From positions 11,791,221 through 11,855,220 of the forward strand of contig NC_090373.1 in assembly GCF_036365525.1 (NCBI RefSeq): a stretch of 64,000 nucleotides of DNA, written 5' to 3'. Origin of the DNA: Heterodontus francisci (taxonomy: Eukaryota). Position 1 is the stretch's first letter, and every line of letters begins with the position of its first letter. Below the pieces are notes generated by a model. It was not told where the DNA came from. It did no database searches and worked only from the letters and a program-made list of their open reading frames with translations. Below are positions 2,548 through 25,371 of this stretch, one piece after another. The position numbers and the translations under genes were made by a program.

Positions 2548-2916
2548 GGGAAGCGGTGGCATAGTGGTAATGTCACTGGACTGGTAATCCAGAAGCTTAG
2601 GCTAATGCTCTGGGGACATGGGTTAGAATCCCACCATGGCAGATGGTGAAATTTGAATTCAATTAATAAAAATCTGGAATTAAAACCTAATGGTGACCAT
2701 GAAATCATTGTCAATTGTTGTATAAACCCCTCTGGTGTGTTAATGTCCTTACCTGGTCTGGCCTACATGTGACTCCAGACCCACAGCAATGTGGTTGACT
2801 CTTAAAATGCCCTCTGAAATGGCCGAGCAAGCTACTCAGTTTCAAGGGCAATTAGGGATGGGCAATAAATGCTGACTTAGCCAGCGATGTCCACATCCCA
2901 TGAATGAATAATAAAA
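2548..2916 (+). mobile_element. tRNA-derived SINE sharing head, body and tail with the 20133-23376 LINE
   Basis: A box tggcatagtgg 2557-2567 and B-box-like ggttagaatcc 2621-2631; body matches 20220-20431; tail matches 23300-23376. Confidence 0.9.
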
Positions 2917-3116
2917 CCCCTCAGATTTAATGTAAGTGGCAAATGAACCAGAGGCGAGCTGAGGAAACCTTTATGCAGTGAGTTGTTATGATCTGAAATG
3001 CACTGAAAGAAGCAGAATAGAGTCACAGAGAGATATAGCACTGAAACAGTCCCTTCGGCCCACCGAGTCTGTACCGACCAACAACCACCCATTTATACTA
3101 ATCCTACATTAATCCC

Positions 3117-5891
3117 TGGGGGATAATGCTGGGGGACTTTAATGCCAGGGTTGGGGCCGACCATGACTCATGGCCCTCCTGCCTTGGGCGCTATGGCGTT
3201 GGAAGGATGAATGAGAACGGGCAGAGACTGCTTGAGTTGTGTACCTATCATAACCTCTGCATCACCAACTCGTTCTTTCACACTAAACCCTGTCACCAGG
3301 TTTCATGGAGGCACCCAAGATCACGTCGTTGGCACCAGCTAGACCTCATTGTCACAAGGCGAGCCGCCTTAAACAGTGTTCAAATCACACGCAGCTTCCA
3401 CAGTGCGGACTGCGACACCGACCACTCCCTGGTGTGCAGCAAGGTTAGACTCAGACCAAAGAAGTTGCATCATTCCAAGCAGAAGGGCCACCCGCGCATC
3501 AACACGAGCAGAATTTCTCACCCACAGCTGTTACAAAAATTTCTAAATTCACTTGTAACAGCCCTTCAAAACACTCCCACAGGGGATGCTGAGACCAAGT
3601 GGGCCCACATCAGAGACGCCATCTATGAGTCAGCTTTGACCACCTACGGCAAAAGTGTGAAGAGAAATGCAGACTGGTTTCAATCTCATAATGAAGAGCT
3701 GGAACCTGTCATAGCCGCTAAGCGCATTGCACTTTTGAACTACAAGAAAGCCCCCAGCGATTTAACATCCGCAGCACTTAAAGCAGCCAGAAGTACTGCA
3801 CAAAGAACAGTTAGGCGTTGCGCAAACGACTACTGGCAACACCTATGCAGTCATATTCAGCTGGCCTCAGACACCGGAAACATCAGAGGAATGTATGATG
3901 GCATGAAGAGAGCTCTTGGGCCAACCATCAAGAAGATCACCCCCCTCAAATCTAAATCGGGGGACATAATCACTGACCAACGCAAACAGATGGACCGCTG
4001 GGTTGAGCACTACCTAGAACTGTACTCCAGGGAGAATGCTGTCACTGAGACTGCCCTCAATGCAGCCCAGCCTCTACCAGTCATGGATGAGCTGGACATA
4101 CAGCCAACCAAATCGGAACTCAGTGATGCCATTGATTCCCTAGCCAGCGGAAAAGCCCCTGGGAAGGACAGCATTACCCCTGAAATAATCAAGAGTGCCA
4201 AGCCTGCTATACTCTCAGCACTACATGAACTGCTTTGCCTGTGCTGGGACGAGGGAGCAGTACCCCAGGACATGCGCGATGCCAACATCATCACCCTCTA
4301 TAAAAACAAAGGTGACCGCGGTGACTGCAACAACTACCGTGGAATCTCCCTGCTCAGCATAGTGGGGAAAGTCTTTGCTCGAGTCGCTCTGAACAGGCTC
4401 CAGAAGCTGGCCGAGCGCGTCTACCCTGAGGCACAGTGTGGCTTTCGTGCAGAGAGATCGACTATTGACATGCTGTTCTCCCTTCGTCAGATACAGGAGA
4501 AATGCCGTGAACAACAGATGCCCCTCTACATTGCTTTCATTGATCTCACCAAAGCCTTTGACCTCGTCAGCAGACGTGGTCTCTTCAGACTACTAGAAAA
4601 GATCGGATGTCCACCAAAGCTACTAAGTATCATCACCTCATTCCATGACAATATGAAAGGCACAATTCAACATGGTGGCTCCTCATCAGAGCCCTTTCCT
4701 ATCCTGAGTGGTGTGAAACAGGGCTGTGTTCTCGCACCCACACTTTTTGGGATTTTCTTCTCCCTGCTGCTTTCACATGCGTTCAAATCCTCTGAAGAAG
4801 GAATTTTCCTCCACACAAGATCAGGGGGCAGGTTGTTCAACCTTGCCCGTCTAAGAGCGAAGTCCAAAGTACGGAAAGTCCTCATCAGAGAACTCCTCTT
4901 TGCTGACGATGCTGCTTTAACATCTCACACTGAAGAATGCCTGCAGAGTCTCATCGACAGGTTTGCGTCTGCCTGCAATGAATTTGGCCTAACCATCAGC
5001 CTCAAGAAAACGAACATCATGGGGCAGGATGTCAGAAATGCTCCATCCATCAATATTGGCGACCACGCTCTGGAAGTGGTTCAAGAGTTCACCTACCTAG
5101 GCTCAACTATCACCAGTAACCTGTCTCTAGATACAGAAATCAACAAGCGCATGGGTAAGGCTTCCACTGCTATGTTCAGACTGGCCAAGAGAGTGTGGGA
5201 AAATGGCGCACTGACACGGAACACAAAAGTCCGAGTGTATCAGGCCTGTGTCCTCAGTACCTTGCTCTACGGCAGCGAGGCCTGGACAACGTATGCCAGC
5301 CAAGAGCGACGTCTCAATTCATTCCATCTTCGCTGCCTTCGGAGAATACTTGGCATCAGGTGGCAGGACTATATCTCCAACACAGAAGTCCTTGAAGCGG
5401 CCAACATCCCCAGCTTATACACACTACTGAGTCAGCGGCGCTTGAGATGGCTTGGCCATGTGAGCCGCATGGAAGATGGCAGGATCCCCAAAGACACATT
5501 GTACAGCGAGCTCGCCACTGGTATCAGACCCACCGGCCGTCCATGTCTCCGTTATAAAGACGTCTGCAAACGCGACATGAAATCGTGTGACATTGATCAC
5601 AAGTCGTGGGAGTCAGTTGCCAGCATTCGCCAGAGCTGGCGGGCAGCCATAAAGACAGGGCTAAATTGTGGCGAGTCGAAGAGACTTAGTAGTTGGCAGG
5701 AAAAAAGACAGAGGCGCAAGGGGAGAGCCAACTGTGCAACAGCCCCAACAAACAAATTTCTCTGCAGCACCTGTGGAAGAGCCTGTCACTCCAGAATTGG
5801 CCTTTATAGCCACTCCAGGCGCTGCTTCACAAACCACTGACCACCTCCAGGCGCGTATCCATTGTCTCTCGAGATAAGGAGGCCCAAAAGA
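3117..5891 (+). mobile_element. RTE-clade LINE, 5'-truncated, young
   Basis: Perfect 11-bp TSD acattaatccc (3106-3116 and 5892-5902); short 3' UTR ending aaaagaa; inserted inside a V-SINE. Confidence 0.95.
3126..5840 (+). CDS. RTE LINE ORF: C-terminal half of the AP endonuclease, reverse transcriptase and C-terminal Cys/His finger
   Basis: 904 aa uninterrupted; motifs GDFNA, LDLIV, DTDH (APE); YRGISLLS, FIDLTKAFD, GVKQG, LFADD (RT); CSTC...HSRIGLYSH. Confidence 0.93.
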   Translation: MLGDFNARVGADHDSWPSCLGRYGVGRMNENGQRLLELCTYHNLCITNSFFHTKPCHQVSWRHPRSRRWHQLDLIVTRRAALNSVQITRSFHSADCDTDHSLVCSKVRLRPKKLHHSKQKGHPRINTSRISHPQLLQKFLNSLVTALQNTPTGDAETKWAHIRDAIYESALTTYGKSVKRNADWFQSHNEELEPVIAAKRIALLNYKKAPSDLTSAALKAARSTAQRTVRRCANDYWQHLCSHIQLASDTGNIRGMYDGMKRALGPTIKKITPLKSKSGDIITDQRKQMDRWVEHYLELYSRENAVTETALNAAQPLPVMDELDIQPTKSELSDAIDSLASGKAPGKDSITPEIIKSAKPAILSALHELLCLCWDEGAVPQDMRDANIITLYKNKGDRGDCNNYRGISLLSIVGKVFARVALNRLQKLAERVYPEAQCGFRAERSTIDMLFSLRQIQEKCREQQMPLYIAFIDLTKAFDLVSRRGLFRLLEKIGCPPKLLSIITSFHDNMKGTIQHGGSSSEPFPILSGVKQGCVLAPTLFGIFFSLLLSHAFKSSEEGIFLHTRSGGRLFNLARLRAKSKVRKVLIRELLFADDAALTSHTEECLQSLIDRFASACNEFGLTISLKKTNIMGQDVRNAPSINIGDHALEVVQEFTYLGSTITSNLSLDTEINKRMGKASTAMFRLAKRVWENGALTRNTKVRVYQACVLSTLLYGSEAWTTYASQERRLNSFHLRCLRRILGIRWQDYISNTEVLEAANIPSLYTLLSQRRLRWLGHVSRMEDGRIPKDTLYSELATGIRPTGRPCLRYKDVCKRDMKSCDIDHKSWESVASIRQSWRAAIKTGLNCGESKRLSSWQEKRQRRKGRANCATAPTNKFLCSTCGRACHSRIGLYSHSRRCFTNH

Positions 5892-7517
5892 ACATTAATC
5901 CCATATTCCCTACCACATCCCCACTATTCTCCTTCCGCCTACCTACACTAGGGGCAATTTACAATGGCCAATTTACCTATCAATCTGCAAGTCTTTGGCT
6001 GTGGGAGGAAACCGGAGCATCTGGTGGAAACCCATGCGGTCACAGGGAGATCTTGCAAACTCTGCACAGGCAGTACCCAGAACTGAACCCAGGTCGCTGG
6101 AGCTGTGAGGCTGCGGTGCTAACCACTGCACCACTGTGCCATGAAGAGGAAAGATTTGGAGGGCTATGGGGAAAGAGTGGGAGAATGGGACTAATTGGAT
6201 AATAACTCTTTCAAAGTACCAGTGAAGGCACTCCTTCTGTTCTGTTTCATTCAATGATTCTCTCATTGTTCTGCGAGAAACACGGAAATGAGGGTTGCAT
6301 TCATGCTCTTAGCTGGAAAATTCCTCTGTACTATTCACCTCTGTTACTGTTGTAGTGATACTTTGAAATCATCCCCTTCATCAGCTCATCAACTAAAGGT
6401 CAAACCTGGACTGCATGCCACAAAATATTATGCATCAACCTGCTTCACATTTACTACAAGCCCATTCTAAGCTCTCATGCGCAACTTTATATCATCTCAT
6501 ACATGCCTGTACTTCAGAAAGCTGCAACTTACAACTGAAAGTCTTGCCTCACTCACATCTTCCAATGGCTCTCTCAAATCAAATGTTGTAACACAAACAT
6601 GGTCATTTACTGTCACCTAGGATGGCCTTCAGGTTAGGCATAGATGTCACAAATAGTACCCATGTGGCTTCTTGTATTAGTCCAGTGGCCTACATTAACG
6701 GAAGGATTTGCGATCAATTAACACTGACATGATATTAATGAGGAAACATAATTTTGAACTGCAATGGCCATAATCCAAGAAAGAGCCATAAAGTCTTCAT
6801 TCTGTGATAGCCTAAGGTATCAACATTTTATGAAGGAGAAGAAACACTGGGGAAAGGTGATGAGGGAGAGGGCATGTTCGGAAGACCAGGACTTACCTCT
6901 GGATTTATGGCAGCGTACTTCATTGAGAAACCCTTCTAGCACCTTGTGTTGGAAACCTAAGCAGTTGTTTTCCACTGCTGTGCTACCATCTCCAAGGACA
7001 AAGATATACCTGTAGAGGGGCCTCCAGCTCTACAGCTGTGCCTGCTATATCACTGTGAACAATAAGTTCACTTTCTTCCTTTGCCTGCACCATAACTTGC
7101 CCTTTAACTTTGACCTGCAACCCTTTAAGAGCTGCTCACTCGCCATATTTTGTGCTCTCCAGTCGAACGTGCAACATGCCAAGGTCCTCAGGTAAGATTT
7201 TCTTGTGTCCAGAGTCAATTCAAATTAAGGGGAAGAGGCTACAACTTCAAAAAAATGTGGCTTGAGCAGGTTCCAGCTCATTTCCCTGATTGCTGCAGTA
7301 TCAGAGCTAAGCTGTCCTGGGAGCCTTATTCATTTGTCCACATTTCTATCTGTGTATCTAAAGCTTTCTACTTGTCTGTTTATAGGTCTGACTGCATATT
7401 GTCTGTCAGTCTAGCTATTACTTTCATAAAAAGTTAAATGTTAAAAAAGGGACATTTAACTTCCCAATGTTGAAAATCCATTTAATTTACTTATATATTT
7501 TATATGTTTGTTTACAG

Positions 7518-7553
7518 GGTTCTGTAGGCCTGCCTGGAACTAAAGGTGAACAA
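7518..7553 (+). CDS. COL9A1: Collagen IX alpha-1(-like) coding exon, 36 bp (GSVGLPGTKGEQ)
   Basis: tttacag acceptor and gtaagt donor; Gly-X-Y frame; corresponds to recalled human COL9A1 GVVGEPGPKGEQ. Confidence 0.9.
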
Positions 7554-7659
7554 GTAAGTTCTTAATTGGTTAAAATGATGATGCGGTACCTTAAATATTT
7601 ATGGAAAAAGATTTCACACTATTCTGATTTTAAATGTGTGTTAAAACAATTTTCTTTAG

Positions 7660-7704
7660 GGTTCCCCTGGTGGAGAAGGTATTGATGGCCGCAAGGGTAA
7701 GATG
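7660..7704 (+). CDS. COL9A1: COL9A1(-like) coding exon, 45 bp (GSPGGEGIDGRKGKM)
   Basis: tttctttag acceptor and gtaaga donor; five Gly-X-Y triplets; corresponds to recalled human GASGEEGEAGERGEL. Confidence 0.88.
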
Positions 7705-8547
7705 GTAAGAGATAATTATATTTCTAATTAAATATACTTTTTGTCGAAATAACTTAGCACATCTGCAGCAGTCCATTCTTAGTTATGGGACTGCAAGGGC
7801 TTCCTGTTATGGCAGTAAGCGATACCCAGCCAATATACCTTCCTATTATAAAGTACATTAATTGTATGCATGTCTGTATTCTAAGAGTTGCTTGTTGTGT
7901 GTCTGAAATTCGGATCGATTTTAGCCAAGTGAATAGAGAGTAAAAGTGTGTAGTGTGTAAACCTTTAGGTTTAGTCAAGAGATGCTGCTGTGCTGAGCTA
8001 TAGCTTAACAGCACCACTGATGGGAAAAGAGTGGTACTGAAGTTGTTTGAAATGTCATAAATTAGTCTGCAAAATTGCAGTGTTCGCAGTATGTGGCTAT
8101 CCATTCCTGGAGCTCCATGGTGCCAATGTAGTCAGTCTCCTGTAAGGGCTGTCACAAAATTCTCCAGTGACTTTGCAAAATTACAATCTGCAAAATAAAA
8201 AATAAACATAATCATATCCAATGACAAGCAAATTAATTTTATATCCTTAATCATTTTCTGCACAAAATTATATGGAACATACAGCTCAGAAACAGGCTGT
8301 TCAGCCCAGCTGGTCTGTGCAGTTGTTTATGCTCCACACAAACCTCCTCCTACCCTACTTCCATTAGCATATACTTCTATTTCTTTGTCCCAATCCAATA
8401 GGGAATTCAGGAGAAATTTCTTTACCCAGCGAGTGGTTGGAATGGGGAACTCACTACCACAAGGCGTAGTTGAGGAGAATAGCATAGATGCATTTAAGCA
8501 GAAGTTAGATATGTACATGAAGGAAAAAGGAACAGTAGGGTATTGGG

Positions 8548-8888
8548 GGTGGCACAGTGGCACAGTGGTTAGCACCACAGCCTCACAGCTCCAGTGACCT
8601 GGGTTCGATTCTTGGTACTGCCTGTGTGGAGTTTGCAAGTTCTCCCTGTGACTGTGTGGGTTTCCGTCGGGTGCTCTCGTTTCCTCCTACAGCCAAAGAC
8701 TTGCAGGTTGATAGGTAAATTGGCCATTATAAATTTCCCCTAGTGTAGGTTGGTGGTAGGACAATGGTGGGGATGTGGTAGGGAATATGGGATTAATGTA
8801 GGATTAGTATAAATGGGTGGTTGTTGGTTGGCACAGACTCAGTGGGCCAAAAGGCCTGTTTCAGTGCTGTATCTCTTAAAAAAAAAGA
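8548..8888 (+). mobile_element. HE1/V-SINE-like SINE
   Basis: A and B boxes (ggttcgattc), same body and tail as the other copies, A-tail. Confidence 0.88.
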
Positions 8889-8912
8889 TATGCTGATGAT
8901 ATGGGAGGGTAA

Positions 8913-9083
8913 TTTTTTTTATTTGTTTATGGGATGTGGGCATCGCTGGCCAGGCCAGAATTATTGTCCATCCCTAATTGCCCTTGAGAAGGTGGTGGTG
9001 AGCTGCCTTCTTGAACCGCTGCAGTCCATGTGGGGTAGGTACGCCAACAGTGCTGTTAGGAAGGGAGTTCCAGGATTTTGACC
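8913..9083 (-). mobile_element. 3' fragment of the same LINE family
   Basis: Reverse complement of the tail from gggtcaaaatcctggaac to cacatcccat plus A-run. Confidence 0.85.
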
Positions 9084-9244
9084 CATACACACCAGAGGAG
9101 ACAAGTTAGGCCAAATGGCCTGTTTCTGTGTAAGATAGGTAAATGAATTATAATGTACGTTTTGCATCCAGTGTATAGTTTTCTCCTTTACAGGTTGGTA
9201 TGTCACTGGACTAGTAATCCAGAAACCCAAGCTAATACGCTGTG

Positions 9245-11072
9245 AAATGAAAGCAATATACTGCAGATGCCGGAAATCTGAAATAAAAATAAAAAGTGCT
9301 GGAAATACTCAGCAGGTCTGGCAACATCTGTGGAGAGAGAAGCAAAGTTAACGTTTCAGGCCTGTGACCTTTCATCGGAACTGGCAAAGGTTAGAAAAGA
9401 ATTAGGTTTTAAGCAAGTCAAGGGGAGAGGGGTGGGGAAGGGGAAGGTGTTTGATAGGGCAGAGGGCAGGAGAGATTAAATAACAAAGCTGTCATGGGAC
9501 AAAGGCAAGGAGTGTGTTAAAGCTTGTGGTGAAAGACAAAGTATTAATTCAAAGAGAGTTTTAATGGCAGAATAATGAACAGCTCTGACTCAACGAAAAG
9601 CAGGCACATGGTTAAAATATAAAATATTAAAGAAAAAGGCCTGAAGTTATTAAACTCAATGTTCCATCCGTAAGGCTGTAGAGTGCCTAATTGAAAGATC
9701 AGGTGCTGTTCCTCGAGCTTGCATTGATGTTCACTGGAACACTGGAGCAGGCCAAGGACAGAAATGTTGGCATGAGAGCAGGGGTGTGTGTTGAAATGGC
9801 AAGCAACTGGAAGATCGGGGTCCTGCTTTCGGACTGAGCGGAGGTGTTCCACAAAGCTGTCACCCAATCTGCGTTTGGTCTCCCCAATGTAGAGGAGACC
9901 GCACTGTGAGCAGCGAATACAGTATACTAAATTGAAAGAAGTACAAGTAAATCACTGCTTCACCTGAAAGGAGTGTTTGGCACCTTGGGTAGTGAGGAGA
10001 GAGGAGGTAAAAGGGCAGGTATTACACCTCCTGCAGTTGCATGGGAAGGTGCCATGGGAAAGGGACGAGGTGTTGGGGGTAATGGAGGAGTGGACCGGAG
10101 TGTTATGGAGGGAAAGATCCCTTCAGAATGCTGACAGGGGAGGGGAAGATGCATTTGTTGGTGGCATCAGGCTGGAGATGGCAGAAATGGCGGAGGATGA
10201 TCCTCTGGATGTGGAGGCTGGTGGGATGGGGTGGAAAGTGAGGACAAGGGGAACCCTGTCATAGTTCTGGGAGGGAGGGGAATGGGTGAGGGCAGAAGTG
10301 TGGGAAATGGGCTGGACACGGTTGAGGGCCCTGTCAATCACAGTGGGGGGAAATACTCAGTTGAGGAAAAAGGAAGACATATCAGAAGTGCTATTGTGGA
10401 AGGTAGCATCATCAGAGCAGATGCTTCGGAGTAAGAGAAACTGGGAGAATGGAATAGAGTCCTTACAGGAAGCAGGGTGTGAGGAAGTGTAATCAAGGTA
10501 GCCATGGGAGTTGGTGGGCTTATAATGAATATTAGTGGATAGCCTATCCCTAGAGATGGAGACAGAGAAGTCGAGGAAGGGATGGGAAGTGTCGGAGATG
10601 GACCATAAAGGTGAGAGAAGGGTGGAAATTGGAAGCAAAGTTGATAAAGTTTTCCAGTTCAGGGCGGGAGCAGGAAACTGCGGACTGAACATTGAGTTCA
10701 ATAACTTCAGAGCATGACTGGCCTTTTTAAAAATATTTTATTTTTTAACCATGTCTGCTTTTCATGTAGTCAGAGCTGCTCATTATTCTGCTATTAACAC
10801 TCTCTGGATGAATGCTTTGTCTTTCACCACAAGCATTAACACACTCTTTGCCTTTGTCCCAGGACAGCTTTGTTATTTAATCTCTCCTGCCCTCTGCCTT
10901 ATCAAACATCTTCCCCTTCCCCACCACCCTCCCCTTCACTTGCTTAAAATCTAATTCTTTTCTAACCTTTGCTAGTTCTGAAGAAGGGTCACAGACCTGA
11001 AAAGTTAACTTTGCTTCTCTCTCCACAGATGCTGCCAGACCTGCTGAGCATTTCCAACACTTTTTGTTTTTA
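9245..11072 (-). mobile_element. Penelope-like retroelement, 5'-truncated, with inverted pseudo-LTRs
   Basis: Minus-strand frames encode a PLE RT C-terminus (YKPTNSHGYLDYTSSHP..KDSIPFSQF) and a GIY-YIG region (FVEHLRSV..PVACHFN); about 9285-9670 is the inverted copy of 10681-11072; 11-bp TSD with one mismatch (9234-9244 and 11073-11083). Confidence 0.88.
10970..11015 (+). ncRNA. Minimal hammerhead ribozyme-like motif in the Penelope pseudo-LTR
   Basis: CTGAAGA, then stem ggtc/aca/gacc, then GAAA; a second copy lies on - at about 9345-9385 (ccgatga aaggtc aca ggcct gaaac gtt). Both copies deviate from the ideal core. Confidence 0.6.
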
Positions 11073-11683
11073 AATACTCTGTGGACATGGGTTTAAATCC
11101 CACCATGGCAGCTGGTGGAATTCAAATTTAATTCATAAATTCAATTATTTAATTGTTAAAAATCTGGAATTGAAAGCTAGTCTCAGTAAGGGTGACCACG
11201 AAACTACCGCCAATTGTTGTAAAAACTCATCTGGTTCACAAATGTCCTTTAGGGAAGGAAATCTGCCGTCCTTACCTGGTCTGGCCTACATGTGACTCCA
11301 GACCTAGAGCAATGTAGTTGACTTTTAACTGCCCTCTGAATTCAGTTGCCAAGGGCAATTAGGCATGGACAACAAATGCTTCCTTGCCAGCGATGCTCAC
11401 ATCCCATGAAACAAATAAAAAAAACAAAAATGCACTTTCTATGTTGGTGCAGCATGTTTATTATAAAATAGACACTCATTATTTTGCATTTTCCATGATC
11501 TTTACTGGAGCTAGTTATTTTCATGACTGCTGTTAGGTTCTGTGTTTACATTGCCACACTTTGCATTAAGGAATCACAGTTTGTAAATTTGGCAGTTGAT
11601 GTGCTCAGCATTGCTTTTGGCTAAAATGTGACTCACTTGTCCTTCCTTGTTTCATCCCGCTTTCCCTCATGTTTTTTGTTTAG

Positions 11684-11716
11684 GGTGATAGAGGAAAACT
11701 TGGTCCCAAGGGTGCT
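11684..11716 (+). CDS. COL9A1: COL9A1(-like) coding exon, 33 bp (GDRGKLGPKGA)
   Basis: Long pyrimidine tract plus tag acceptor, gtaagt donor; corresponds to recalled human GDIGLPGPKGS; the split triplet continues into the next exon. Confidence 0.9.
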
Positions 11717-12064
11717 GTAAGTATTGTACAAATTTCTGCTTCACTCCTTTTACGTTTTCACTTAGTGAACTGGGTCTTCTTAAGCTACAGAAGTGTAGAC
11801 TTTGAGGCGATTTGATTGATCTTTAAAACAATGGAAGGATTGGATTCAGTCCAAGTGCATAAACTAATTCATTTAGCTAGATTAGGCTGCTGGTGGTTGG
11901 GAGGACAGCACAATGCTGTTACTTTTGCACCATGACCAGATGGGACTATTGATGGACCAGCTGGCCTTTTCCTCTCTGTTATTTTCATACGTTCTCAGAC
12001 AACATGTTTGCAGGACACAGTGGCTCCTGTGTAGTTGCAAATCATGCAATGTGTTTAGAGACAT

Positions 12065-12940
12065 AGAGAGTCATAGAGTTATACAGTGCAGAAATAGGCC
12101 CTTCTGCCCAATGCATCAGTGCCAGCCATCAAGCACCCATCCAATCTAATCCTATTTTCCAGCACTTGGCCCGTAGCCTTGTATGCTGTGGCATTTCAAG
12201 TGCTCATCTAAATAATTCTTAAATGTTGTGAAGGTTCCTGCCTCAACCACCCCTTCAGGCAGTGCGTTCCAGATTCCAACCACCCACTGGGTGAAAAATA
12301 TTTTCCTCAAATCCCCTCTAAACCTTAAATCTATGCCCCCTAGTTATTGACCCCTCTACTAAGGGAAAAAGTTTCTTCCTGTTTTTCCTATTAATGCCCC
12401 TCATAATTTTGTATACCTCAATCAGGTCCCCCCTCAGCCTTCTCTGCTCCAAGGAAAACAACCCTAGCCTATCCAGTCTCTCTTCATAGCTGAAATGCTC
12501 CAGCCCAGGCAACATCCTGGTGAATCTCCTCTGCACCCTCTCCAATGCAATCACGCCCTTCCGATAGTGTGGCGACCAGAACTGTACACAGTACTCCAGC
12601 TGTGGCCTAACTAGCATTTTATACAGCTCCATCATAACCTCCCTGCTGCTATATTCTGTGCCTTGGCTAATAAAGGCAAGTATCCCTTATGCCTTCGTAA
12701 CCACCTTATCTACCTGTGCTGCTGCCTTCAGTGATCTATGGACAAGTACACCAAGTCCCTCTGACCCTCTGTACTTCCTGGGGTCCTACCATCCATTGTA
12801 TATTCCCTTGCCTTGTTACACCTCCCAAAATGCATCACCTCACACTTCTCAGGATTAAATTCCACTTACCACAGCTCCGCCCATTTTACCAGCCCATCGA
12901 TATCATCCTGTAATGTAAAGCTTTCCTCCTCACTGACTAG
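12065..12940 (-). mobile_element. Classical CR1 LINE 3' fragment
   Basis: LYKMLVRPQLEYCVQFWSP...LEQRRLRGDLIEVYKI..TRGH. Confidence 0.9.
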
Positions 12941-13504: not shown

Positions 13505-13830
13505 AAGCAAAATACTGCAGATGCTGGCAATCTGAAATAAAAACAGAAAATGCTGCAAATACTCAGCAGGTCTGAGAGCATCATGTAGAGAGAGAAAGAG
13601 AGTTAATGTTTCAGGTCATCAGAACTAGAAGAAGTTAACGATGTAATAGGTTTTAAGCAAGTACAGAGGCAGGGAGAGGAGAGGGGAGGAAAGTATAAAA
13701 GGGGAAGGTCTGTGATAGGGTGGAGGTCAGGAGAGTTTAAATGACAGTAATGATGGTGGAAGACAAAAGGAGATGGTAATGGGACAAGTAATGGTTACAG
13801 CAGAATCATCACCAACAGTTGAAAAAATGA
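13505..13830 (-). mobile_element. Penelope-like pseudo-LTR / 3' end fragment
   Basis: Matches 9250-9600 (aaatactgcagatgctgg...cagcaggtctg). Confidence 0.75.
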
Positions 13831-15612: not shown

Positions 15613-15759
15613 CTTGGTAAACCTGGTGAGGTTGGACTTCGTGGCAAGGATGGGATTCGTGGTCTGCCGGGTGTACAGGGCCCCCTCGGCGCTATCGGAC
15701 CACGAGGTTTACAAGGAGATCGTGGGCTTACCGGCCTACCTGGGAACCAGGGACCCCCT
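15613..15759 (+). CDS. COL9A1: COL9A1(-like) coding exon, 147 bp, end of COL2 helix ([11 protein letters not shown]...GNQGPP)
   Basis: ttttccag acceptor and gtaatt donor; 49 codons of Gly-X-Y; visible in ORF 15559..15924. Confidence 0.93.
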
Positions 15760-15881
15760 GTAATTATGAGTACAATTTTATGTTTGTTCATGCTCCACAG
15801 CATTCATTACATTTGCTTTACAAGTTCTGAGTTTTGCTTAGTCATTTGCTTTAATTCTTCTTTTAAAATGACTGTTCCTAG

Positions 15882-15936
15882 GGTAACGAGCCTACAGACC
15901 AACACATTAGACAAGTATGCATGAGAGTAATGCAAG
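15882..15936 (+). CDS. COL9A1: COL9A1(-like) coding exon, 55 bp, NC2 domain ([18 protein letters not shown])
   Basis: cctag acceptor and gtgagt donor; nearly identical to recalled human GRAPTDQHIKQVCMRVIQ, which is diagnostic for the alpha-1(IX) chain. Confidence 0.95.
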
Positions 15937-16074
15937 GTGAGTACCACTGTCTCAGGCTAAAATGCGTTTAAATAATCTACTATTTTGCAACAAAACACAG
16001 ACCTCTTATAGCACAAAGTAACAAAAGTTCAGTTAAAACCACCACAGCTCCTCACTAAAACACTTTAATACATC

Positions 16075-16795
16075 ATTACCCACCTGTATTATAGACAGAT
16101 TGATACTACATAATCCACCTGTGATATACACAGACTGATACACCATAATCTGCCTGTAATATACTCAGACTGATATACCAGTATCCACCTGTAGTATACA
16201 CAGACTGATACACCATAATCCACCTGTAAAATACACATACTGATATATCATTACTCACCTGTAATATACACAGACAAATATACCATAACCAACCGGAATA
16301 TACACAGACTGATATACCATAATCCACTTGTAGTATACACAGACTGATACACGATAACCCACCTGTAATATACACAGACTAATATACCATTACGCACCTG
16401 TAATATACACTGAATGATATACCATAATGCACAAGCAATATACATAGACTGATACACCATAATGCACCTGTAATATACACAGACTATATACTATAATCCA
16501 TCTGTAATATACACAGACTGATATACCATTACCAACCTGTAGTATACAAACTGATGCACCATAACCCTCCTGTAATATACAGACTGATATACCATAATCT
16601 GCTGTATTATACACAGACTGATATAACATAATCCGCTTGAAATATACACTGACTCTACACCATAATCCACCTGTACTATACACAGACTGATGTACCATAA
16701 CCCACCTACAATATACATAGACTGATACACCCCAATGCACCTGTAATATACAAAGACTATATTACTAATCAACTGTACATTCAGTGGATGCACCA
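16075..16795. repeat. Minisatellite, unit about 35-37 bp (ccacctgtaatatacacagactgatataccataat), roughly 19-20 diverged copies
   Basis: Directly visible tandem units without unique spacers. Confidence 0.92.
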
Positions 16796-16869
16796 TTTTT
16801 AGAAACTTAACTTCTCATCACCAGGCAAGCTGGAGAAAAATTGTTTAATTCATTGACTCCAGCACATTA

Positions 16870-17072
16870 ATTATTTGTCTCAGGTTTTTATCCCTCAATC
16901 AACATCACTAAAACAGATGATCTGGTCATTAATACATTCCTGTTTGTGTGCAAATTGCCTGCGACATTTCCTACATTACAACAGTGAATAATACCCTTCA
17001 AAAAAAATATTTAATTGGCTGTAAAGCACATTGAGATGCCCTGAAGTTATGAAAGGTGCTATATAAATGTAG
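16870..17072 (+). mobile_element. DeuSINE-like (AmnSINE1/SacSINE1-type) 3' fragment
   Basis: aaaacagatgatctggtcatt...tttcctacattacaacagtga...aaaggtgctatataaatg resembles the Deu core as I recall it; related minus-strand pieces lie at about 27672-27775 and 28615-29100. Confidence 0.6.
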
Positions 17073-18251
17073 GAGAAAGGCAGGAGACATTAAATGACAA
17101 AAGGGATGAAGGTGCAAGGCAAAATGTGATGGTAATGGGACAAGAAACAAAAGGGTCAAGAGGATCTGTAAATGGGAAGAGTGAAATCATCATTAGCATC
17201 CGATGTCCAAAAGAAACAGGAGCAGTGGTTATGGTGTGAAATTGCTGAACTCTCTGTTGATGCTGGAAGGTCACAAAGTGCCTAATGGATCGATGAGGCT
17301 CTGTCCCTTACGCTGCCACTGAGCTTCATTAACTTTAAATTAAGAGGAGTAAGAGCTTGGTGAGGCAAGGTCTTTATTGCAAAATCACCCCCAAGCTGCA
17401 CACAATTTTACACTTATTAGAACCAGTGAATGGCCTTGCCTGGCGCGAAAGAGGAAAATCTGCCCAATTGTTTTCATAAATCCAAGTGTGGCTCCTGAAT
17501 GAGTTTTAGCACAAGCAGAGGTGGAATTAAGACCGAAGGATTGGTGTAGAGGGGAGAGTCCACATTTGGCCAACTTGGCACAGCATGGCCAGAGTGAGGT
17601 CCTTCAATGCTATTGACGCCAGACTCCAAATTGACACTGCAAGCATGATTGGGAATTTAGAAGTTAAACGAGTAAATTATTTGTGGCCAGTTTTGACTGG
17701 GTCGTGCCATAAAAATGGACCAACCTCAAACTGATTGGAGGGGTGCAGGGTCATTCCCCCCTTCCCCCCAACCCCTCTCTGTCTCTGCCACTGAAGACAA
17801 GGGCCATAAAATTTGGTTGCGTAGCTCGCTTATTTGTGGCACTACAGGTACTATTGGAGTTCCGTGCCATGTGGTGCACCTCTTGTGGGCCCAGCTAGAT
17901 GCCATGTTGGGTAGATTGTTAGAGCGGGCACTGGGAGCGTTCACTGGAAGTATGCAGAGCAGACTGATCGGGATGTTAGTGAGTGTGTAACATTGATTTG
18001 ATTGCAGTGTTGCCATTTTCAACCTCAGTGTTCCAGCTAATGCCTCTCTTAACCTTGCACAGCTGACCATGTGTTCAGCAGTAGGAAGGACTCCCCAGCA
18101 GTGCTATTTAAAGGTGTCATCAGCCAGTTTCAGGTTAGTTGCTGATTGATTTCTACTGGTTGTAGCTGAGTTAGTAGAAATGTTTGGAGGTTTGTACTCT
18201 TTAAAGTTGGTGAAGTCTACAGGGAGTGGGTGTGGCACATAGTGAAGGGTT

Positions 18252-19785
18252 TGGTTCAATGAAGAGTGCAGGAGAGCATGCCAGGAGCAGCACCAGGCGT
18301 ACCTAAAAATAGGGTGCCAACCTGGCGAAGCTGCAACACAGGACTAGATACATGTGAAACAGCCGAAGCAGCATGCTATAGACAGAGCTAAGCGATCCCA
18401 CAACCAACGGATCAGATCAAAGCTCTGCAGTCCTGCCATATCCAGTCGTGAATGTTGGCGGACAATTAAACAACTAAACAAAGGAGGAGACTCCACAAAT
18501 ATCCCCTTCTTCGATGATGGGGGAGCCCAGCACATCAGTGCAAAAGACAAGGCTGAAGCATTTGCATCATTGTCGGCCAGAAGCGCCAAGAGGATGATCC
18601 ATCTCGGCCTCTTCCTGAGGTCTCCAGCATCACAGATGCCAATCTTCAGCCAATCCGATTCACTCTACATTGATATCAAGAAATGGCTGAAGGCACGGGA
18701 TACAGGAAAGGCTATGGGCCCTGACAACTTGCCAGCTGTAGTACTGAAGACTTGTTCTCCAGTATTAGCTGCACCTATAGCCAAGCTGTTCCAGTACAGC
18801 TACAACACTGGCATCTACCCAACAATGTGGAAAACTGTCCAGGTATATCCTGTCCTCAAAAATCAGGAAAAATCCAACCCGGCCAATTGCCACCCCATCA
18901 GTCTACTGTCAAACATCAGCAAAGTGATGGAAGGTGGCACTGACAGTGCTATCAACCGGCACTTACTCCGCAATATCCTGCTCACTGATGCTCAATTTGT
19001 GTTCTGCCAGGGCCACTCAGCTCCATAGCTCATTACAGCCTTAGGACAAACATGGACAAAAGAGCTGAATTCCAAAAGTGAGGTGAGACTGACTGCCCTT
19101 GACATCAAGGAAGCATTTGACCGAGTATGGCATCAAGGAGCCCTAGCAAAACTGAAGTCAATGGGAATCAGGGGGAAAACTCTTCACTGGCTGGAGTCAT
19201 ACCTAGCACAAAGGAAGATGGTTGTGGTTGTTGGAGGTCAATCATCTTAGCTCCAGGACATCACTGCAGGAGTTCTTCAGGGTAGTGTCCTAGGCCCAAC
19301 CATCTTCAGCTGCTTCATCAATGACCTTCCTTCAATCATAAGGTCAGAAGTGGGGATGTTCGCTGATGATTGCACAATGTTCAGCACCATTTTCAACTCC
19401 TCAGATACTGAAGACGCCCATGTCCAGATGCAGCAAGACCTGGACAGCTTTCAGGCTTGGGCTGATAAGTTGCAAGTAACATTCACGCCACGCAAGTGGC
19501 AATGACCATCTCCAGCAAGAGAGAATAAAACCTTCCCTTGACATTTAATGGCCTTCCCATCACTGAATCCCCACTATTAACATCCTAGGGGTTACCATTG
19601 ACCAGAAACTGAACTGGAGTAGCCATATAAATACCGTGGCTACAAAAGCAGGTCAGAGACTGGGAATTCTGAGGCGAGCAACTCACCTCCTGTCTCCCCA
19701 AAACCTGTCCACCATCTACAAGGCACAAATCAGGAGTGTGATGGAATACTCTCCACTTGCCTGGATGAGTGCAGCCCCAACAATA
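18252..19785 (+). mobile_element. Internal fragment of the same CR1-group LINE family (RT region)
   Basis: Colinear with about 21388-22910; MFADD region present; stops and frameshifts. Confidence 0.9.
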
Positions 19786-20140
19786 CCCAATACCGGGCTA
19801 GGCAGAAGCGGGTTTGCCACCAACTTTTATGTCGGTGGCGAATTCCCATCCGCCTAAGGAAAAATCCAGCCCAATAGATTAATAGATTAAGTGTATGGGC
19901 AAAACTGTGGCAAATGGATTTCAATGTAGGCCTTTGTAGGGTCATCCACTTTGGATCTAAAAAGGATAGAACTGGGTACTTTCTAAATGGCGAAATGCTA
20001 GAAATTCTGGAGTCCAAAGAGACTTGAGGGTCCAGGTACACAGACCATTAAAATACTATGAACAAGTACAGAATATAATCAAAAAGGCTAATGGAATGAT
20101 GGCCTTTGTATATAGAGGACTGGAATACTAGAATAGGTGG

Positions 20141-20215
20141 TGGCGTAGTGGTATTGTCACTGGACTACTAACCCAGAGACCCTGGGTATTGGTCTGGGGA
20201 CATGGGTTCGAATCC
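20141..20215 (+). promoter_or_regulatory. Type 2 RNA polymerase III internal promoter (A box TGGCGTAGTGG, B box GGTTCGAATCC)
   Basis: Direct match to the canonical tRNA A-box and B-box consensus. Confidence 0.85.
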
Positions 20216-20435
20216 CACCACAGCAATTAATAAATCTGGAATTAAAAAGCTAGTCTAATGATGGCAATGAAACCATTGTCGATTGTTGTAAAAACCATCT
20301 GGTTCACTAATGTCCTTTAGGGAAGGAAATCTGCTGTCCTTACCTGGTCTGGCCGACTTGTGACTCCAGACCCACAGCAATGTGGTTGACTCTTACATGC
20401 CCTCTGAAATGGCCTAGCAAGCCACTCAGTTGTAA

Positions 20436-23313
20436 CTAACTGCTACGAAGTCAATAAAAAGGAATGAAACCGGACGGACCACCCGGCATCGACCTAGGAA
20501 CCGGAAACGACAATGGCAAACCCAGCCCTGTCGACCCTGCAAAGTCCTCCTTACTAACATCTGGGGGCTTGTGCAAAAGTTGGGAGAGCTGTCCCACAGA
20601 CTAATCAAGCAACAGCCTGACATAGTCATACTCACAGAATCATACCTTACAGACAATATCCCAGACACTGCCATCACCATCCCCGGGTATGTCCTGTCCC
20701 ACCGACAGGACAGACCCAGCAGAGGTGGTGGCACAGTGGTATACAGTAGGGTGGGAGTTGCCCTGGGAGTCCTCAACATTGACTCTGGACCCCATGAAGT
20801 CTCATGGCATCAGGTCAAACATGGACAAGGAAACCTCTTGCTGATTACCACCTACTGCCCTCCCTCAGCTGATGAGTCAGTACTCCTCCATATTGAACAG
20901 CACTTGGAGGAAGCACTGAGGGTGGCAAGGGCACAGAATGTACTCTGGGTGGGGGACTTCAATGTCCATCACCAAGAGTGGCTCGGTAGCACCGCTACTG
21001 ACCGAGCTGGCCAAGTACTAAAAGACAATATATGCCAGAAAGGGTATGTGGCAGGTGGTGAGGGAACCAACAAGAGGGGAAAACATACTTGACCTCGTCC
21101 TCACCAGATGCATCTGTACATGACAATAGTGGTAGGAGTGACCACTGCACAGTCCTTGTGGAGACAAAGTCCCACCTTCACATTGGCGATACCCGCCTTC
21201 ATGTTGTGTGGTACTACCACCGTGCTAAATGGGATAGATTTCGAACAGATCTAGCAATGCAAAACTGGGCATCCATGAGGCGCTGTGGGCCATCAGCAGC
21301 AGCAGAATTGTACTCAACCACAAACTGTAACCTCATGGCCCAGCATATCCCCACTCTACCATTACCATCAAGCCAGGAGACCAACCCTGGTTCAATGAAG
21401 AGTGCAGGAGAGCATGCCAGGAGCAGCACCAGGCATACCTCAAAATGAGTTGAAACCTGGTGAAGCTACAATACAGGACTATCTGCATGCCAAACTGCAT
21501 AAGCAGCATGCAATAGACAGAGCTAAGCGATCCCATAACCAACGGATCAGATCTAAGCTCTGCAGTCCAGCCACATCCAGTCGTGAATGGACAATTAAAC
21601 AACTAACTGGAGGAGGTGGCTCCACAAATATCCCCATCCTCAATGATGGGGGAGCCCAGCACATCAGTGTGAAAGATAAGGCTGAAGCATTTGCAACAAT
21701 CTTCAGCCAGAAGTGCCGAGTTGATGATCCATCTCGGACTCCTTCTGCAGACCCAGCTTCACAGGTGCCAGACTTCAGCCAATTCAATTCACTCCGCATG
21801 ATATCAAGAAACGACTGAAAGCACTGGATACTGCAAAGGCTATGGGCCCTGACAATATTCTGGCAATAGTACTGAAGACCTGTGCTTCAGAACTTGCCGC
21901 GCCCATAGCCAAGCTGTTGCAGTACAGCTACAACACTGGCATCTACCCTGCAATGTGGAAAATTGGCAAGGTATGTCCTGTACACAAAAAGCAGGACAAG
22001 TCCAACCCGGCCCATTACAGCCCCATCAGCCTACTCTCAATCATCAGTAAAGTGATGCAAGGTGTCATCAACAGTGCCATCAAGCGGCACTTGCTTAGCA
22101 ATAACCTGCTCAGTGACGCTCAGTTTGGGTTCCGCCAGAGCCACTCAGCTCCATATCTCATTACAGCCTTGGTTCAAACATGGACAAAAGAGCTGAATTC
22201 AAAAGGTGAGGTGAGAGTGACATCAAGGCAGCATTTTACCGAATATGGCATCAAGGAGCCCGAGCAAAACTGGAGTCAATGGGAATCAGGGGAAAAACCC
22301 TCCGCTGGCTGGAGTCATACCTAGCGCAAAGGAAGATGGTTGTGGTTGTTGGAGGTCAATCATCTGAGCTCCAGGACATCACTGCAGGAGTTCCTCAGGG
22401 TAGTGTCCGAGGCCCAACCATCTTCAGCTGCTTCATCAATGACCTTCCTTCAATCATAAGGTCAGAAGTGGGGATGTTCGCTGATGATTGCACAATGTTC
22501 AGCACCATTCGTGACTCCTCAGATACTAAAGCAGTCCGTGTAGAAATGCAGCAATACTTGAACAGTATCCAAGCCTGGGCTGATAAGTTGCAAGTAACAT
22601 TCACGCCACACAAGTGCCAGGCAATGACTATCTCCAACAAGAGAGAATCTAGCCATCTCCCCTTGACATTCAATGGCATTACCATCGCTGAATCCACCAC
22701 TATCAACATCCTAGGGGCTACCATTGATCAGAAACTGAACTGGAGTAGCCATATAAATACCATGGCTACAAGAGCAGGTAAGAGGCTGAGAATCCTGCGG
22801 CAAGTAATTCACCTCCTGACTCCCCAAAGCCTGTCTACCATCTACAAGGCACAAGTTAGGAGTGTGATGGAATACTCTCCACTTGCCTGGATGGGTGCAG
22901 CTCCAACAGCACTCAAGAAGCTCAACACCATCCAGGACAAAGCAGCCCGCTTGATTGACACCCCATCTACAAACATTTACTCCCTCCACCACTGACGCAC
23001 AGTGGCAGCAGTGTGTACCATCTACAAGATGCCCTGCAGAAACGCACCAAGGCTCCTTAGTCAGCACCTTCCAAACCCGCGACCTTTACTAACTAGAAGG
23101 ACAAGGGCAGCAAATGCATGGGAACATCACCACCTGCAAATTCCCCTCCTAGTCACACACCATCCTGACTTGGAACTATATCGCCGTTCCTTCACTGTCG
23201 CTGGGTCAAAATCCTGGAACTCCCTTCCTAACAGCACTGTGGGTGTACCTGCCCCACATGGACTGCAGCGGTTCAAGAAAGCGGCTCACCATCACCTTCT
23301 CAAGGGCAATTAG
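20436..23313 (+). pseudogene. Frameshifted APE-RT ORF of the tRNA-headed LINE
   Basis: ORF pieces 20571..21092, 21089..21448, 21402..21818, 21842..22324, 22279..22995 and 23002..23313 join into one endonuclease plus RT protein. Confidence 0.88.
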
Positions 23314-23879
23314 TGCTGGGCAATAAATGCTGGCATAGCCAGCGACGCTCACATCCCATGCATGAATAAAAAAAAACAATTGAGTAGAAATCGTGCTTCA
23401 GCTTAACAAAGCCCTGGTTAGACCACACCTGGAGCACTGTGAGCAGTTCTGGGCACTGCACCTTAGGAGGAATATATTGGTCTTGGAGGGAATGCAGTGT
23501 AGATTTACCAGGATGTTGCATGGATTCCAAAGGTTAAATTATGAGAACAGATCACACAAACTAGGGTTGTATTCTGTGATATTAAGGGGAACAAATAGAG
23601 TAGATAAGAGAGAATCTATTTCTGCTGCTTGGGGACTCTAAGACCAGGTGTCATAGTCTAAAAATTAGAACCAGAACTTTCAGGAGTGAAATTAGGAAAC
23701 ACTTCTACACATAAAGGATGATAGAAGTTTGGAACTCTCTTCTGCAAACAGCAGTTGATGCTAGACCAATTGTTAATTTTAAATTGGAGATTGATAGATT
23801 TTTGTTAAGCAAAGGTATTAAGGGATATGGGGCAAGGGAGGGTATATGGAGTTATGGAATGTGAAAAGTTGGATTAGGT

Positions 23880-24640
23880 ATGAGCATACAGTCATCTTTG
23901 ATGCTTTCAGCCCTGCGGCCTCGGTCATGGCCCCTTCAATGATGGCCAGCACCGTCTCCTCCATTAGGATGAGGACATGCAGCTGTACCTGTCCCCTGCC
24001 AGTTAAATGCTGTTCCCTGTGGTCGTGTCTGTCGTGCAATAGGGAGGAAGTTGTGTCAGTGAGTGTGGTGCAATGGTTTTGGGTGATGTGGTTGTCATGG
24101 CTGAATAGCTGGCAGTATGTGTAAGCTGTGAGATGTAGGTGTGAGGTTGCAGTCATACTAAGTCTGTGATTGATAGAGAGTGTTGGTGAGTGATAGGATG
24201 CAGTGAACTGAGCAGTGTCTGAGGCTAGTGGTGCAGTTGGTGGAATATGACATTTCACTGACCTTGACCACTTGCATGAGGTCATTAGCTACACTTTTAG
24301 GATTGATCGCCACAGCTACTTGCTCCCACTGCCTTCTGAGAGTTTGTCTGGAGGACCTGCTGGCCCTCTGTAATAGAGGACATCGCTCTTCCTCTGCACC
24401 TCCTCGACCATGGCTTCCAGCACATCTTGGAGCCCATTCCCTGCCGTGTTGTTCTTCCAGCTCACACTCACTTCTGCAACCAGTTCCAGCACCTGCTGCA
24501 GCCACGCAACAGTAGGCTTAGCACTGCATGCAGAAATCATTTAAATTAGCAGGCGGCATGAAGTTAAATCATGCATGGTTTAATCACACATCGCCATCCC
24601 TGGTCCAGTTTTCCAGCCTTAACGAATTTCACGGCCAGGG
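23880..24640 (-). mobile_element. PIF/Harbinger-like remnant encoding a degraded Myb/SANT-like protein
   Basis: Minus frames: REWAPR.., LEAMVEEVQRKSDVLY, RRQWEQVAVAINPKS, the trihelix/Myb-SANT pattern typical of Harbinger second ORFs; frameshifted. Confidence 0.55.
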
Positions 24641-24906
24641 CATTCTTTGTGGCTCCAGTAGATTCTTTTGCAGCTCGCAGAAAATTCTTAAGAGAAATAA
24701 AATCAGGATTTTTCTTTTGTGATGTTTTCAGTGTAAGTAGATATGGGATGCTGCCATTCGGAAGGTGGCAGTAATTCGATTTTCACAGGCCGACAGGAGG
24801 ATAGGCATGGACAGGCAATAGGCATCTTGAGGCATTTGTCAGACATTGTGGCACCAGTGTTTGTTCACTGGTTCTTTCTCACTTGCAAAGAGACATATGT
24901 ACTGAC

Positions 24907-25371
24907 TTTTTAAAATTCATTCTTTGGATGTGAGTGTCACTGGCAAGGCCAGCATTTAACGCCCTTCCCTAATTGCCCATGAAAAGGTGGTGGTGAACTA
25001 CCTTTATGGACCATTGCAGTCCATTTGGTATTGGTACACCCACAGTGCTTTTTTCTGTAGTGGTTTGATACAACTGAGTGGCTTGCTAGGCCATTTCAGA
25101 GGGCAGTTAAAAGTTGTGGGTCTGGAGTCACATGTAGGCCAGACCAGATAAGGACGGCAGATTTCATTCCCTGAAGGACATTGGTGAACCAGTTGGGTAT
25201 TTACAGCAATCTGGTAGTTTCATGAGTCTTCATGAGACTAGCATTTTATTCCAGATTTATTTATTAATTGAATTTAAATTACCCGAGCTGCCGTGATGGG
25301 ATTTGAACTCATGCCTCTGGAGCATTAGTCCAGGCCTCTGGATTACAAGTCCAGTAACATTACCACTATGT
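24907..25371 (-). mobile_element. Longer variant of the same SINE, keeping extra LINE-derived sequence
   Basis: Reverse complement reads ...gccactcagttgtatcaaaccactacagaaaaa|agcactgtgggtgtacc...gggcaattaggg. Confidence 0.82.

Follow-up and report, generated by a model that had tools for sequence, protein, structure and literature searches.

A tRNA-headed CR1-Zenon-like LINE in a shark genome and four SINEs probably derived from such an element by internal deletion

Closest described elements

In the standard account, Pol II serves LINEs and Pol III serves SINEs (PMC10886601), and SINEs are modeled as being built from parts of separate origin (PMC5786205). Related elements have been described. 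The Persaeus elements, which are SIDEs from lepidopteran Zenon, are 260 to 390 bases long and consist of the 5' UTR, ORF end, and 3' UTR of the LINE, and deletion derivatives of insect Zenon reportedly arose at least four times (PMC6740152). The bipartite SINEs Bov-tA, AfroSINE, and SINE2-1_EBu combine a tRNA head with a LINE 5' UTR body and a LINE tail, with the head joined to the deleted element and an RTE or Vingi LINE as the partner (PMC5786205, PMC7245038). RTE-1_DAn is a LINE for which a tRNA-like sequence has been mentioned (PMC5786205); a headed LINE therefore has a precedent, with no role described for it there. The known shark tRNA-headed SINEs include SacSINE1/DeuSINEs and the V-SINE HE1 (PMC5499810, PMC4824008), the latter paired with HER1 (PMC4824008, PMC5499810). 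Elasmobranch CR1-Zenon was named in the whale shark (10.1101/443036) and is described in a preprint as having high copy number and high identity across sharks and as absent from repeat libraries (bioRxiv 10.64898/2026.01.13.699120).

We analyzed a window of 64 kb, the whole stretch of DNA presented here, and all coordinates are positions within it. The window contains a full-length but decayed LINE with a tRNA-like head and four SINEs, S1 to S4, similar in size to the shark SINEs named above (Table 1). Like Persaeus, S1 to S4 have both LINE ends, short repeats at breakpoints, and, probably, several origins; unlike Persaeus, which has neither tRNA homology nor a Pol III promoter (PMC6740152), both the LINE and its derivatives have such a promoter here. 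The derivatives are SINEs by definition because they carry a Pol III-type head; they work like SIDEs, yet they are not SIDEs as defined in PMC6740152, where no small-RNA head is present. Unlike in the bipartite SINEs, the coding element carries the head as well, and the partner LINE belongs to the CR1 group. The deletion route is thus already known from SIDEs and bipartite LINEs, and what is unusual is the Pol III-type head on an autonomous element, since a tRNA-derived start is normally found only on short noncoding repeats (SINEs). Neither a shark Zenon with a tRNA head, nor these SINEs, nor this shortcut to a SINE is described in the open-access papers searched here.

Table 1. Positions of the LINE, its parts, and related elements in the window
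Feature	Position	Strand	Basis or remark
LINE, full-length but decayed, single-ORF APE-RT, CR1-Zenon-like	20136..23379	+	tRNA-like head and poly-A tail
tRNA-like head, long variable arm	20136..20226	+	ARAGORN; Rfam; box scan
5' UTR stretch corresponding to SINE body	20227..20447	+	alignment
Endonuclease-RT frame, broken	20436..23313	+	stop 23311-23313; Pfam
Tail common to all SINEs	23300..23379	+	last ORF codons, 3' UTR stem-loop, poly-A
Target-site duplication, degraded, left copy	20124..20137	+	in older CR1; right copy ~23372-23387
SINE S1	2548..2916	+	join 20431/23300; nearest LINE at both ends
SINE S2, detached head	9194..9244	+	profile match E 7e-7; 11-base end repeat
SINE S2, body and tail	11073..11428	+	LINE match ends 20408, resumes 23301
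SINE S3, longest form	24907..25371	-	join 20446/23230
SINE S4, most diverged	39898..40304	-	join at ACTGC (~20439-20443 / 23262-23266)
LINE 3' fragment T1	8913..9085	-	89%
LINE fragment, internal	18252..19790	+	86% to 21388-22916
LINE 3' fragment T2	46450..46775	+	91%
LINE 3' fragment, within inverted duplication	47759..47947	-	90%
LINE copy, 5'-truncated	48034..49047	+	86%
LINE 3' fragment T3	51600..51932	-	86%

The headed LINE and its family

The LINE is about 3.2 kb long, with about 300 bases ahead of the frame and no ORF1. Pfam matches to an endonuclease and an RT lie in a frame that has frameshifts and stops and that no in-frame ATG opens in this copy; the poly-A tail (23370-23379) is also found on the 3' LINE fragments. 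The single APE-RT ORF, the lack of ORF1, and the poly-A end fit the description of elasmobranch CR1-Zenon; in the main text of the CR1-Zenon preprint the words "tRNA," "promoter," and "non-autonomous" never occur, and its consensus may carry the head unannotated (10.64898/2026.01.13.699120). Relatives of the LINE have single frames of 940 to 1060 amino acids, and an RT tree of 33 rows, with no labeled Zenon among them, placed the LINE with L001 and P0010 (support, 95/90).

The LINE head scored 24.8 bits (E 0.009) against the Rfam tRNA clan, under the gathering threshold; in Rfam tRNA matches, S3 scored 30.5 bits, above gathering, and S1 scored 26.7 bits. Against the Pol III box consensus, the LINE shows zero mismatches in both boxes (A, 20141-20151; B, 20205-20215), S1 shows 0 or 1, and S3 shows 1 or 2, whereas the boxes of S4 and S2 are decayed. 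Folding signals were weak for the tail stem-loop (z, -1.0 to -2.0) and likewise for the head.

We considered whether a SINE simply landed before a headless LINE at this single locus. The window holds only one headed LINE copy, and an exact search for target-site duplications gave nothing convincing for the LINE, S1, or S3 and only weak words for S2 and S4. However, a single set of 13 positions in a CR1 copy near 45.4 to 45.5 kb is matched by both LINE flanks, and by this alignment the LINE inserted as one unit into an older CR1 that is continuous around it; moreover, no SINE tail follows the head. A chance juxtaposition is also contradicted by independent copies, namely, diverged contigs that bridge 5' UTR and endonuclease sequence and gene models from the whale shark, and we regard it as highly improbable.

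Among these copies, there are two contigs from another organism (X7; 2 of the 32 pieces listed), one covering 20363-20640 with 35 differences and the other 20364-20701 with 55. Contig depth, which is not copy number, formed a plateau across 20142-23408 in all four contig sets compared, and in X1, which may be the window's own source rather than an independent one, it was alike past the join (691k at 20437) and inside the ORF (695k at 20499). A 5'-UTR-derived peptide preceded endonuclease sequence in 4 of the 150 best phmmer matches, all labeled Rhincodon typus; these gene models read a 5' extension like that of S3, and P0003 carries QATQLYQ in a copy continuing into the endonuclease. The contig and protein alignments and the insertion into the CR1 show that the headed LINE is a multicopy, multispecies family of autonomous type, and that it has retroposed as one unit of head, ORF, and tail. 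A 22-base body motif had no match in contigs from genomes, viruses, or metagenomes, the outcome to be expected of a shark sequence; the viral contigs searched held no LINE relative, and a protein atlas search returned generic RT clusters only.

SINEs S1 to S4 and their joins

By structure, S1 to S4 classify as tRNA-derived SINEs (SINE2), with an A/B-box head, a tail shared with a LINE, and, for the S1 and S2 forms, many dispersed copies. All four run co-linear with both LINE ends, from the head through the 5' UTR to the tail; no two share a join, and the two ends of one LINE explain their whole length. Their tails end in an A-rich stretch and are 73 to 92% identical to LINE tails.

The sequence-only reading of this DNA had described S1 as the LINE 5' part up to 20431 joined to 23300 onward, and the alignment confirmed this (20139-20431, then 23300-23374, with zero bases between and an overlap of only 1 to 2 bases). 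It had described the S2 join as similar; in fact the join differs, as about 17 more bases are missing before the tail resumes. The S2 head had gone unlisted and is separated from its body by a 1.8-kb insertion (9245-11072) whose ends carry an 11-base repeat, 10/11 alike. The extra LINE sequence that the reading saw on both sides of S3, which aligns to 20146-20446 and 23230-23375, was borne out: of the first 15 bases at the 5' side, 11 agree with the LINE sequence that follows 20431 (anchored binomial P = 2e-4), and 69 to 71 bases at the 3' side match the ORF end (score, 58 to 75; top of 1000 shuffles, 24), for 90 extra bases in total. S4, a fourth copy that the reading had missed, was matched by a leave-one-out profile (E 1e-35) and is 62 to 65% identical to the other elements. 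S4 joins at the 5-base word ACTGC, which the LINE has at either edge of the gap, and support for the 3' extension of S4 is weak (scores as high came from 20 and 28 of 2000 shuffles). Both S3 and S4 carry 5' sequence past the S1 join, and they retain about 80 and 50 bases, respectively, of ORF coding sequence up to the stop.

Joints 20429-20431 to 23297-23300 were present in all four contig sets, and the S2-type joint (20408 to 23301) was present in two of the four, with 5 contigs in one other organism and 10 in a second. At 20431, the loose end seen most often was the tail start (800 records in X5 and 603 in X7). The S3 and S4 joins were absent among the 15 joints listed of 16,499. We set aside joints from 20395 or to 23317; these lie where the window copy has private changes and probably represent a single join miscut in alignment.

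The Deu core (PMC7245038 supplement) does not match S1 to S4 or the LINE body. Domain motif tests gave 5 to 8 mismatches in 16 to 18 bases overall. We ruled out the SacSINE1/Deu label for the body, since two Deu motifs had 5 to 8 mismatches in all five elements and no match at ≤3 in the window, and with it we dropped the idea that the ancient Deu domain came from the LINE 5' UTR; a Meta or UCON3 domain was ruled out by 6 to 8 mismatches in 17 to 18 bases. To our knowledge, the bodies have no likeness to the CORE or V domain, and the HE1 sequence differs from S1 to S4.

Origin of the SINEs and transcription of the LINE

We think it fairly probable that internal deletion of a tRNA-headed LINE gave rise to S1 to S4, a route like that of Persaeus except that these SINEs had a Pol III promoter from the start. 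A shark CR1-Zenon-like lineage would have gained a tRNA-derived head before its 5' UTR, by template switch or recombination, a step that we infer because the relatives have no head. Internal deletion, most likely through an RT jump within the RNA or DNA repair at short repeats, would then have removed the ORF and left the internal Pol III promoter and the RT-recognized tail, and since both remain, the product would be a complete SINE in one step. Such a SINE would be copied in trans by the LINE protein; trans mobilization of SINEs by LINE proteins is established SINE biology. The window LINE is not the literal parent because it lacks about 20 to 30 bases behind the head that S1 to S4 retain. 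If this origin is correct, a high-copy LINE already carrying a SINE promoter reduces SINE birth to one deletion, the LINE and SINEs form a natural series in many shark genomes in which the sources of head and body and the direction of module movement can be tested, and shark repeat libraries would need to handle them as a single family.

The reading had proposed this one-master origin, and the part that stands is that a multicopy LINE contains, in order, the head, body, and tail of each of the four SINEs. An S3 extension that did not align or a LINE head standing apart from SINE heads had been named as evidence against it; instead, the extension aligns and the LINE head groups with S1. The direction is less firm, since the head had to join the LINE at some point. 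In a SINE-first origin, a tRNA head was added to a headless bipartite LINE derivative (the Okada-Kojima route, a published model; PMC5786205) or to an unrelated body, and after the SINE spread, the LINE took its 5' part by recombination or template switch. This would account for all 17 related loci, the nearest (L001) included, having neither the tRNA head nor the body ahead of the ORF, although these outgroups are distant (protein identity, 26 to 44%) and no fewer than 4 of them are without their 5' part; the 5' ends of L001 and L002 have a short likeness to the first bases of the head, with no tRNA call. It would also fit S3 and S4 looking older than the LINE copies (78% and 64% identity to the LINE versus 84 to 91% between LINE copies); we saw no LINE copy of S3/S4 age in a contig comparison whose 80% identity floor is blind to such copies. 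The LINE head nests among the SINE heads, as capture would also predict. However, the LINE groups with S1 by sequence yet has the extension seen only in S3 and S4, which would require a donor outside the forms sampled, and the S1 tail is as near the LINE tails as these are to one another. We judge a SINE-first origin rather unlikely.

Comparison of five heads and eight tails, with few informative sites, also bears on how many deletions occurred under the preferred deletion origin. Head/body identity to the LINE is 83.4% for S1 and 80.2, 77.8, and 63.6% for the other SINEs, and the S1 tail is 91.7% identical to T2, against 85.9, 83.3, and 80.0% for the others. The quartet LINE,S1/S3,S4 was favored by 10 head sites versus 5 and 1 and by 4 tail sites versus 2 and 1, small counts that are mostly transitions (head transversions, 1:1:0); the quartet of LINE, S2, S3, and S4 favors another split (3, 2, 6). 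At least the S1 form thus probably arose after the S3/S4 forms split off, and on that order there were probably two or more SINE births. The earlier claim of deletion more than once is accordingly likely to hold, whereas an independent origin of each join does not follow: the S1, S2, and S4 deletions all contain that of S3, and therefore one event with secondary deletions explains the breakpoints equally well. An S3-like SINE would in that case have been born once from the headed LINE, with the shorter forms later homogenized with it by tail or head exchange, and an S3-type template would offer the ACTGC word and the S1 join just as readily. S1 is nearer to the LINE (head, 83.4%; tail, 87.5 to 91.7%) than to S3 (79.8 and 77.8%) at both ends, however, which would need two extra exchanges, and we consider a single birth unlikely.

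Tentatively, the autonomous LINE may itself be a Pol III unit, that is, a 3.2-kb coding RNA whose internal promoter is of the tRNA type and from which T runs have been purged. It would be translated without a cap or in-frame AUG, and each internal deletion of it would give an instantly working SINE, repeatedly in shark evolution. If so, Pol III would be making an RNA that codes for protein, raising the question of its translation. The LINE sense strand has one run of at least four T's in 3235 bases, private to the window copy (expected, 2.6 to 3.4; P, 0.11 to 0.21), and two other LINE copies have one each, likewise private; TTTT depletion is not significant by itself. TTT occurs 6 times versus 14.0 expected (P = 0.0015), a poverty that possibly hints at Pol III transcription of the LINE. 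TTT depletion was also seen in 2 of 10 outgroup frames, a near-identical pair, each of which still has 26 TTTT runs.

A single-frame LINE with a tRNA-like head

The 3.2-kb LINE has a single broken frame with endonuclease and reverse transcriptase (RT) matches, about 300 bases ahead of the frame that leave no space for an ORF1, and a poly-A end. The top phmmer matches to its protein were whale-shark gene models, and full-length relatives were 35 to 43% identical. A 2026 preprint describes elasmobranch Zenon elements as lacking ORF1, poly-A-tailed, and absent from repeat libraries (bioRxiv 10.64898/2026.01.13.699120). The single-frame, ORF1-less, and poly-A features agree with those of our element, and on these described features the name Zenon is a good fit. 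The head resembles a tRNA that has a long variable arm, and its A box (20141) and B box (20205) have 0 mismatches to the Pol III consensus. A short upstream ATG frame extends into the beginning of the endonuclease frame, and some whale-shark gene models fuse the two.

We aligned contigs from 4 of 24 listed sequencing runs to the window with an 80% floor; run X1 may be the window's own source and was not counted as independent. Depth in the three large runs rose from 22 to 77 thousand in the left flank to 0.3 to 31 million over 20142-23408. Of the 32 pieces listed, two belong to organism D and cover 20363-20640 (35 differences) and 20364-20701 (55 differences); since they cross the join point, where the 5' part meets the tail in the short elements, other copies bridge the 5' UTR and the ORF. 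A 5'-UTR-derived peptide precedes endonuclease sequence in 4 of the best 150 protein matches (P0002, P0003, P0032, and P0044, all labelled Rhincodon typus). The window LINE interrupts an older CR1. Its left and right flanks match one and the same stretch of 13 positions in this host element, which marks a decayed target duplication enclosing head and tail together. The head and ORF are a family. The letter at 20437 varies by organism (other letter in 10% of depth in X1, 15% in X15, and 98 to 99% in X5 and X7), possibly as a subfamily marker.

Short elements sharing both LINE ends

Self-comparison of the window located the LINE and showed that its two ends are repeated in four short elements, S1 to S4.

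Features of the window, with matching LINE positions or content
Feature	Position	Strand	Match or content
LINE	20136-23379	+	frame 20436-23313
Upstream ATG frame	20464-20604	+	46 codons
S1	2548-2916		LINE 20139-20431, then straight into 23300-23374
S2, detached head	9194-9244		1.8 kb upstream of body; body match stops at LINE 20408
S2 insertion	9245-11072		1.8 kb; inverted arms 9284-9670 and 10681-11072, 87%
S3	24907-25371	-	LINE 20146-20446 and 23230-23375
S4	39898-40304	-	62-65% like other short elements
RTE-like LINE	3102-5840	+	unbroken 912-aa frame; RT match, E 6e-33
Collagen-like exon	15616-15760	+	16 Gly-X-Y triplets
Tandem array	16066-16777		period ~35 or 70 bases, ~80% alike
Inverted duplication	46108-46637, 47506-48033		95-96%; CR1 stretch including part of a LINE 3' fragment
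Another LINE copy	48034		directly follows the inverted duplication

The sequence-only reading had described S1 as the LINE 5' part running directly into the tail, which self-comparison confirmed. It had also taken the extra sequence of S3 as LINE-derived, and the 90 bases beyond the S1 form are LINE-like on either side (11 of 15 bases agree on the 5' side; on the 3' side, about 70 bases from the ORF end score 58 to 75, versus 24 for the best shuffle). The join of S2, thought similar to that of S1, proved different, with an earlier end to the match and a head split from the body by an insertion. That insertion has frames resembling Penelope GIY-YIG and RT pieces, as judged by eye, and an 11-base end repeat. 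The S4 join sits at a 5-base word present at both edges of the LINE gap; the short repeat is 1 to 2 bases at the main join, and none is clear in S3. The shared ends are genuine and well past chance.

The main join (20429-20431 to 23297-23300) was present in all four runs, and in two of them the tail start was the most frequent loose end at 20431. Among the joints listed, that of S2 occurred in 5 contigs of organism B and 10 of organism D; the S3 and S4 joins were not among the 15 listed of 16,499. Joints that leave at 20395 or arrive at 23317 coincide with private changes of the window LINE copy and probably represent the main join cut at the wrong place.

We dropped the Deu domain of SacSINE1 (PMC5499810) as a label for the SINE body, since the Deu motifs printed in the PMC7245038 supplement did not match; neither did the Meta and UCON3 motifs there.

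Direction and number of the proposed deletions

Of the four, S1 lies closest to the LINE in its head (83.4%) as well as in its tail (91.7% to T2, a 3' LINE fragment at 46450-46775 [+]); S2, S3, and S4 follow in that order. Quartet-site counts, which are small and chiefly transitions, favoured LINE,S1|S3,S4 (head, 10:5:1; tail, 4:2:1), and the 5' extension of the LINE is absent from S1 and kept in S3. In the simplest history, a headed LINE lineage gave off elements of the S3/S4 type at an early stage and those of the S1 type afterwards. The proposal of repeated internal deletion from one master is consistent with S1 being nearest at both ends; its claim of more than one birth is less secure, since the deletions are nested and the quartet LINE,S2,S3,S4 conflicts (3, 2, 6). 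A single deletion followed by secondary trimming is conceivable but improbable, and a chance landing of a SINE in front of a headless LINE is very improbable. Against certainty on direction, S3 and S4 look older than every LINE copy seen, as they might had the head joined a deleted derivative before the LINE, a course that we rate as unlikely and only slightly ahead of trimming. On balance, we favour repeated deletion from a headed LINE as the probable origin of the SINEs.

The head was not found in any of 17 related loci (metagenomes and one MAG) by a head/body profile or ARAGORN, nor by Rfam in the 11 scanned. The same profile with S4 left out recovered S4 at E 1e-35, and the head was therefore gained on the shark side of a long branch. 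In L001 (450-480) and L002 (365-390), the nearest invertebrate-type relatives, the 5' end begins with a word like the shark head's first bases (in L002, 12 of 15 bases agree by eye) and has no tRNA call.

Deletion would leave both cis needs of a SINE, which PMC5786205 gives as an internal Pol III promoter and a tail recognised by the RT. Template jumping at short repeats, proposed for Persaeus in PMC6740152, would give the joins. LINE deletion derivatives are already known (RIME, Bov-A, Vingi, R2, and Persaeus from Zenon), as are tRNA-headed bipartite SINEs with RTE and Vingi partners; in the literature searched, the one LINE mentioned with tRNA-like sequence is RTE-1_DAn. In the literature searched, outside subscription journals, Repbase, and Dfam, we found no description of tRNA-headed shark Zenons or S1-S4-like SINEs, and the consensus files of the Zenon preprint may contain the head.

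T runs and other window features

As a control of equal T content we used the RTE-like LINE in the window, which may be a young copy. On the sense strand, TTT runs number 7 over 3235 bases of the headed LINE versus 25 over 2779 of the control (P 2e-4). Within the coding segments of the LINE there are 6, against the 14.0 that synonymous shuffles predict (P 0.0015). There was no depletion in the control (25 versus 24.3) or L001 (31 versus 35.1), and TTT was also low in 2 of 10 outgroup frames, the two near-identical. The sole TTTT is private (other letter in 89 to 99% of depth at 22237), as are the single TTTT runs of two other LINE copies; the TTTT shortage by itself was not significant (P 0.11 to 0.21). 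These patterns hint, tentatively, that the LINE itself might be transcribed by Pol III. Phe codons are few in the LINE frame (16 of 876 versus 28 of 906 in the control), which would fit either avoidance of T runs or composition.

The inverted duplication, the LINE copy that follows it, and the tandem array are listed in the table. The repeats probably lie in collagen-gene introns, given the Gly-X-Y exon.
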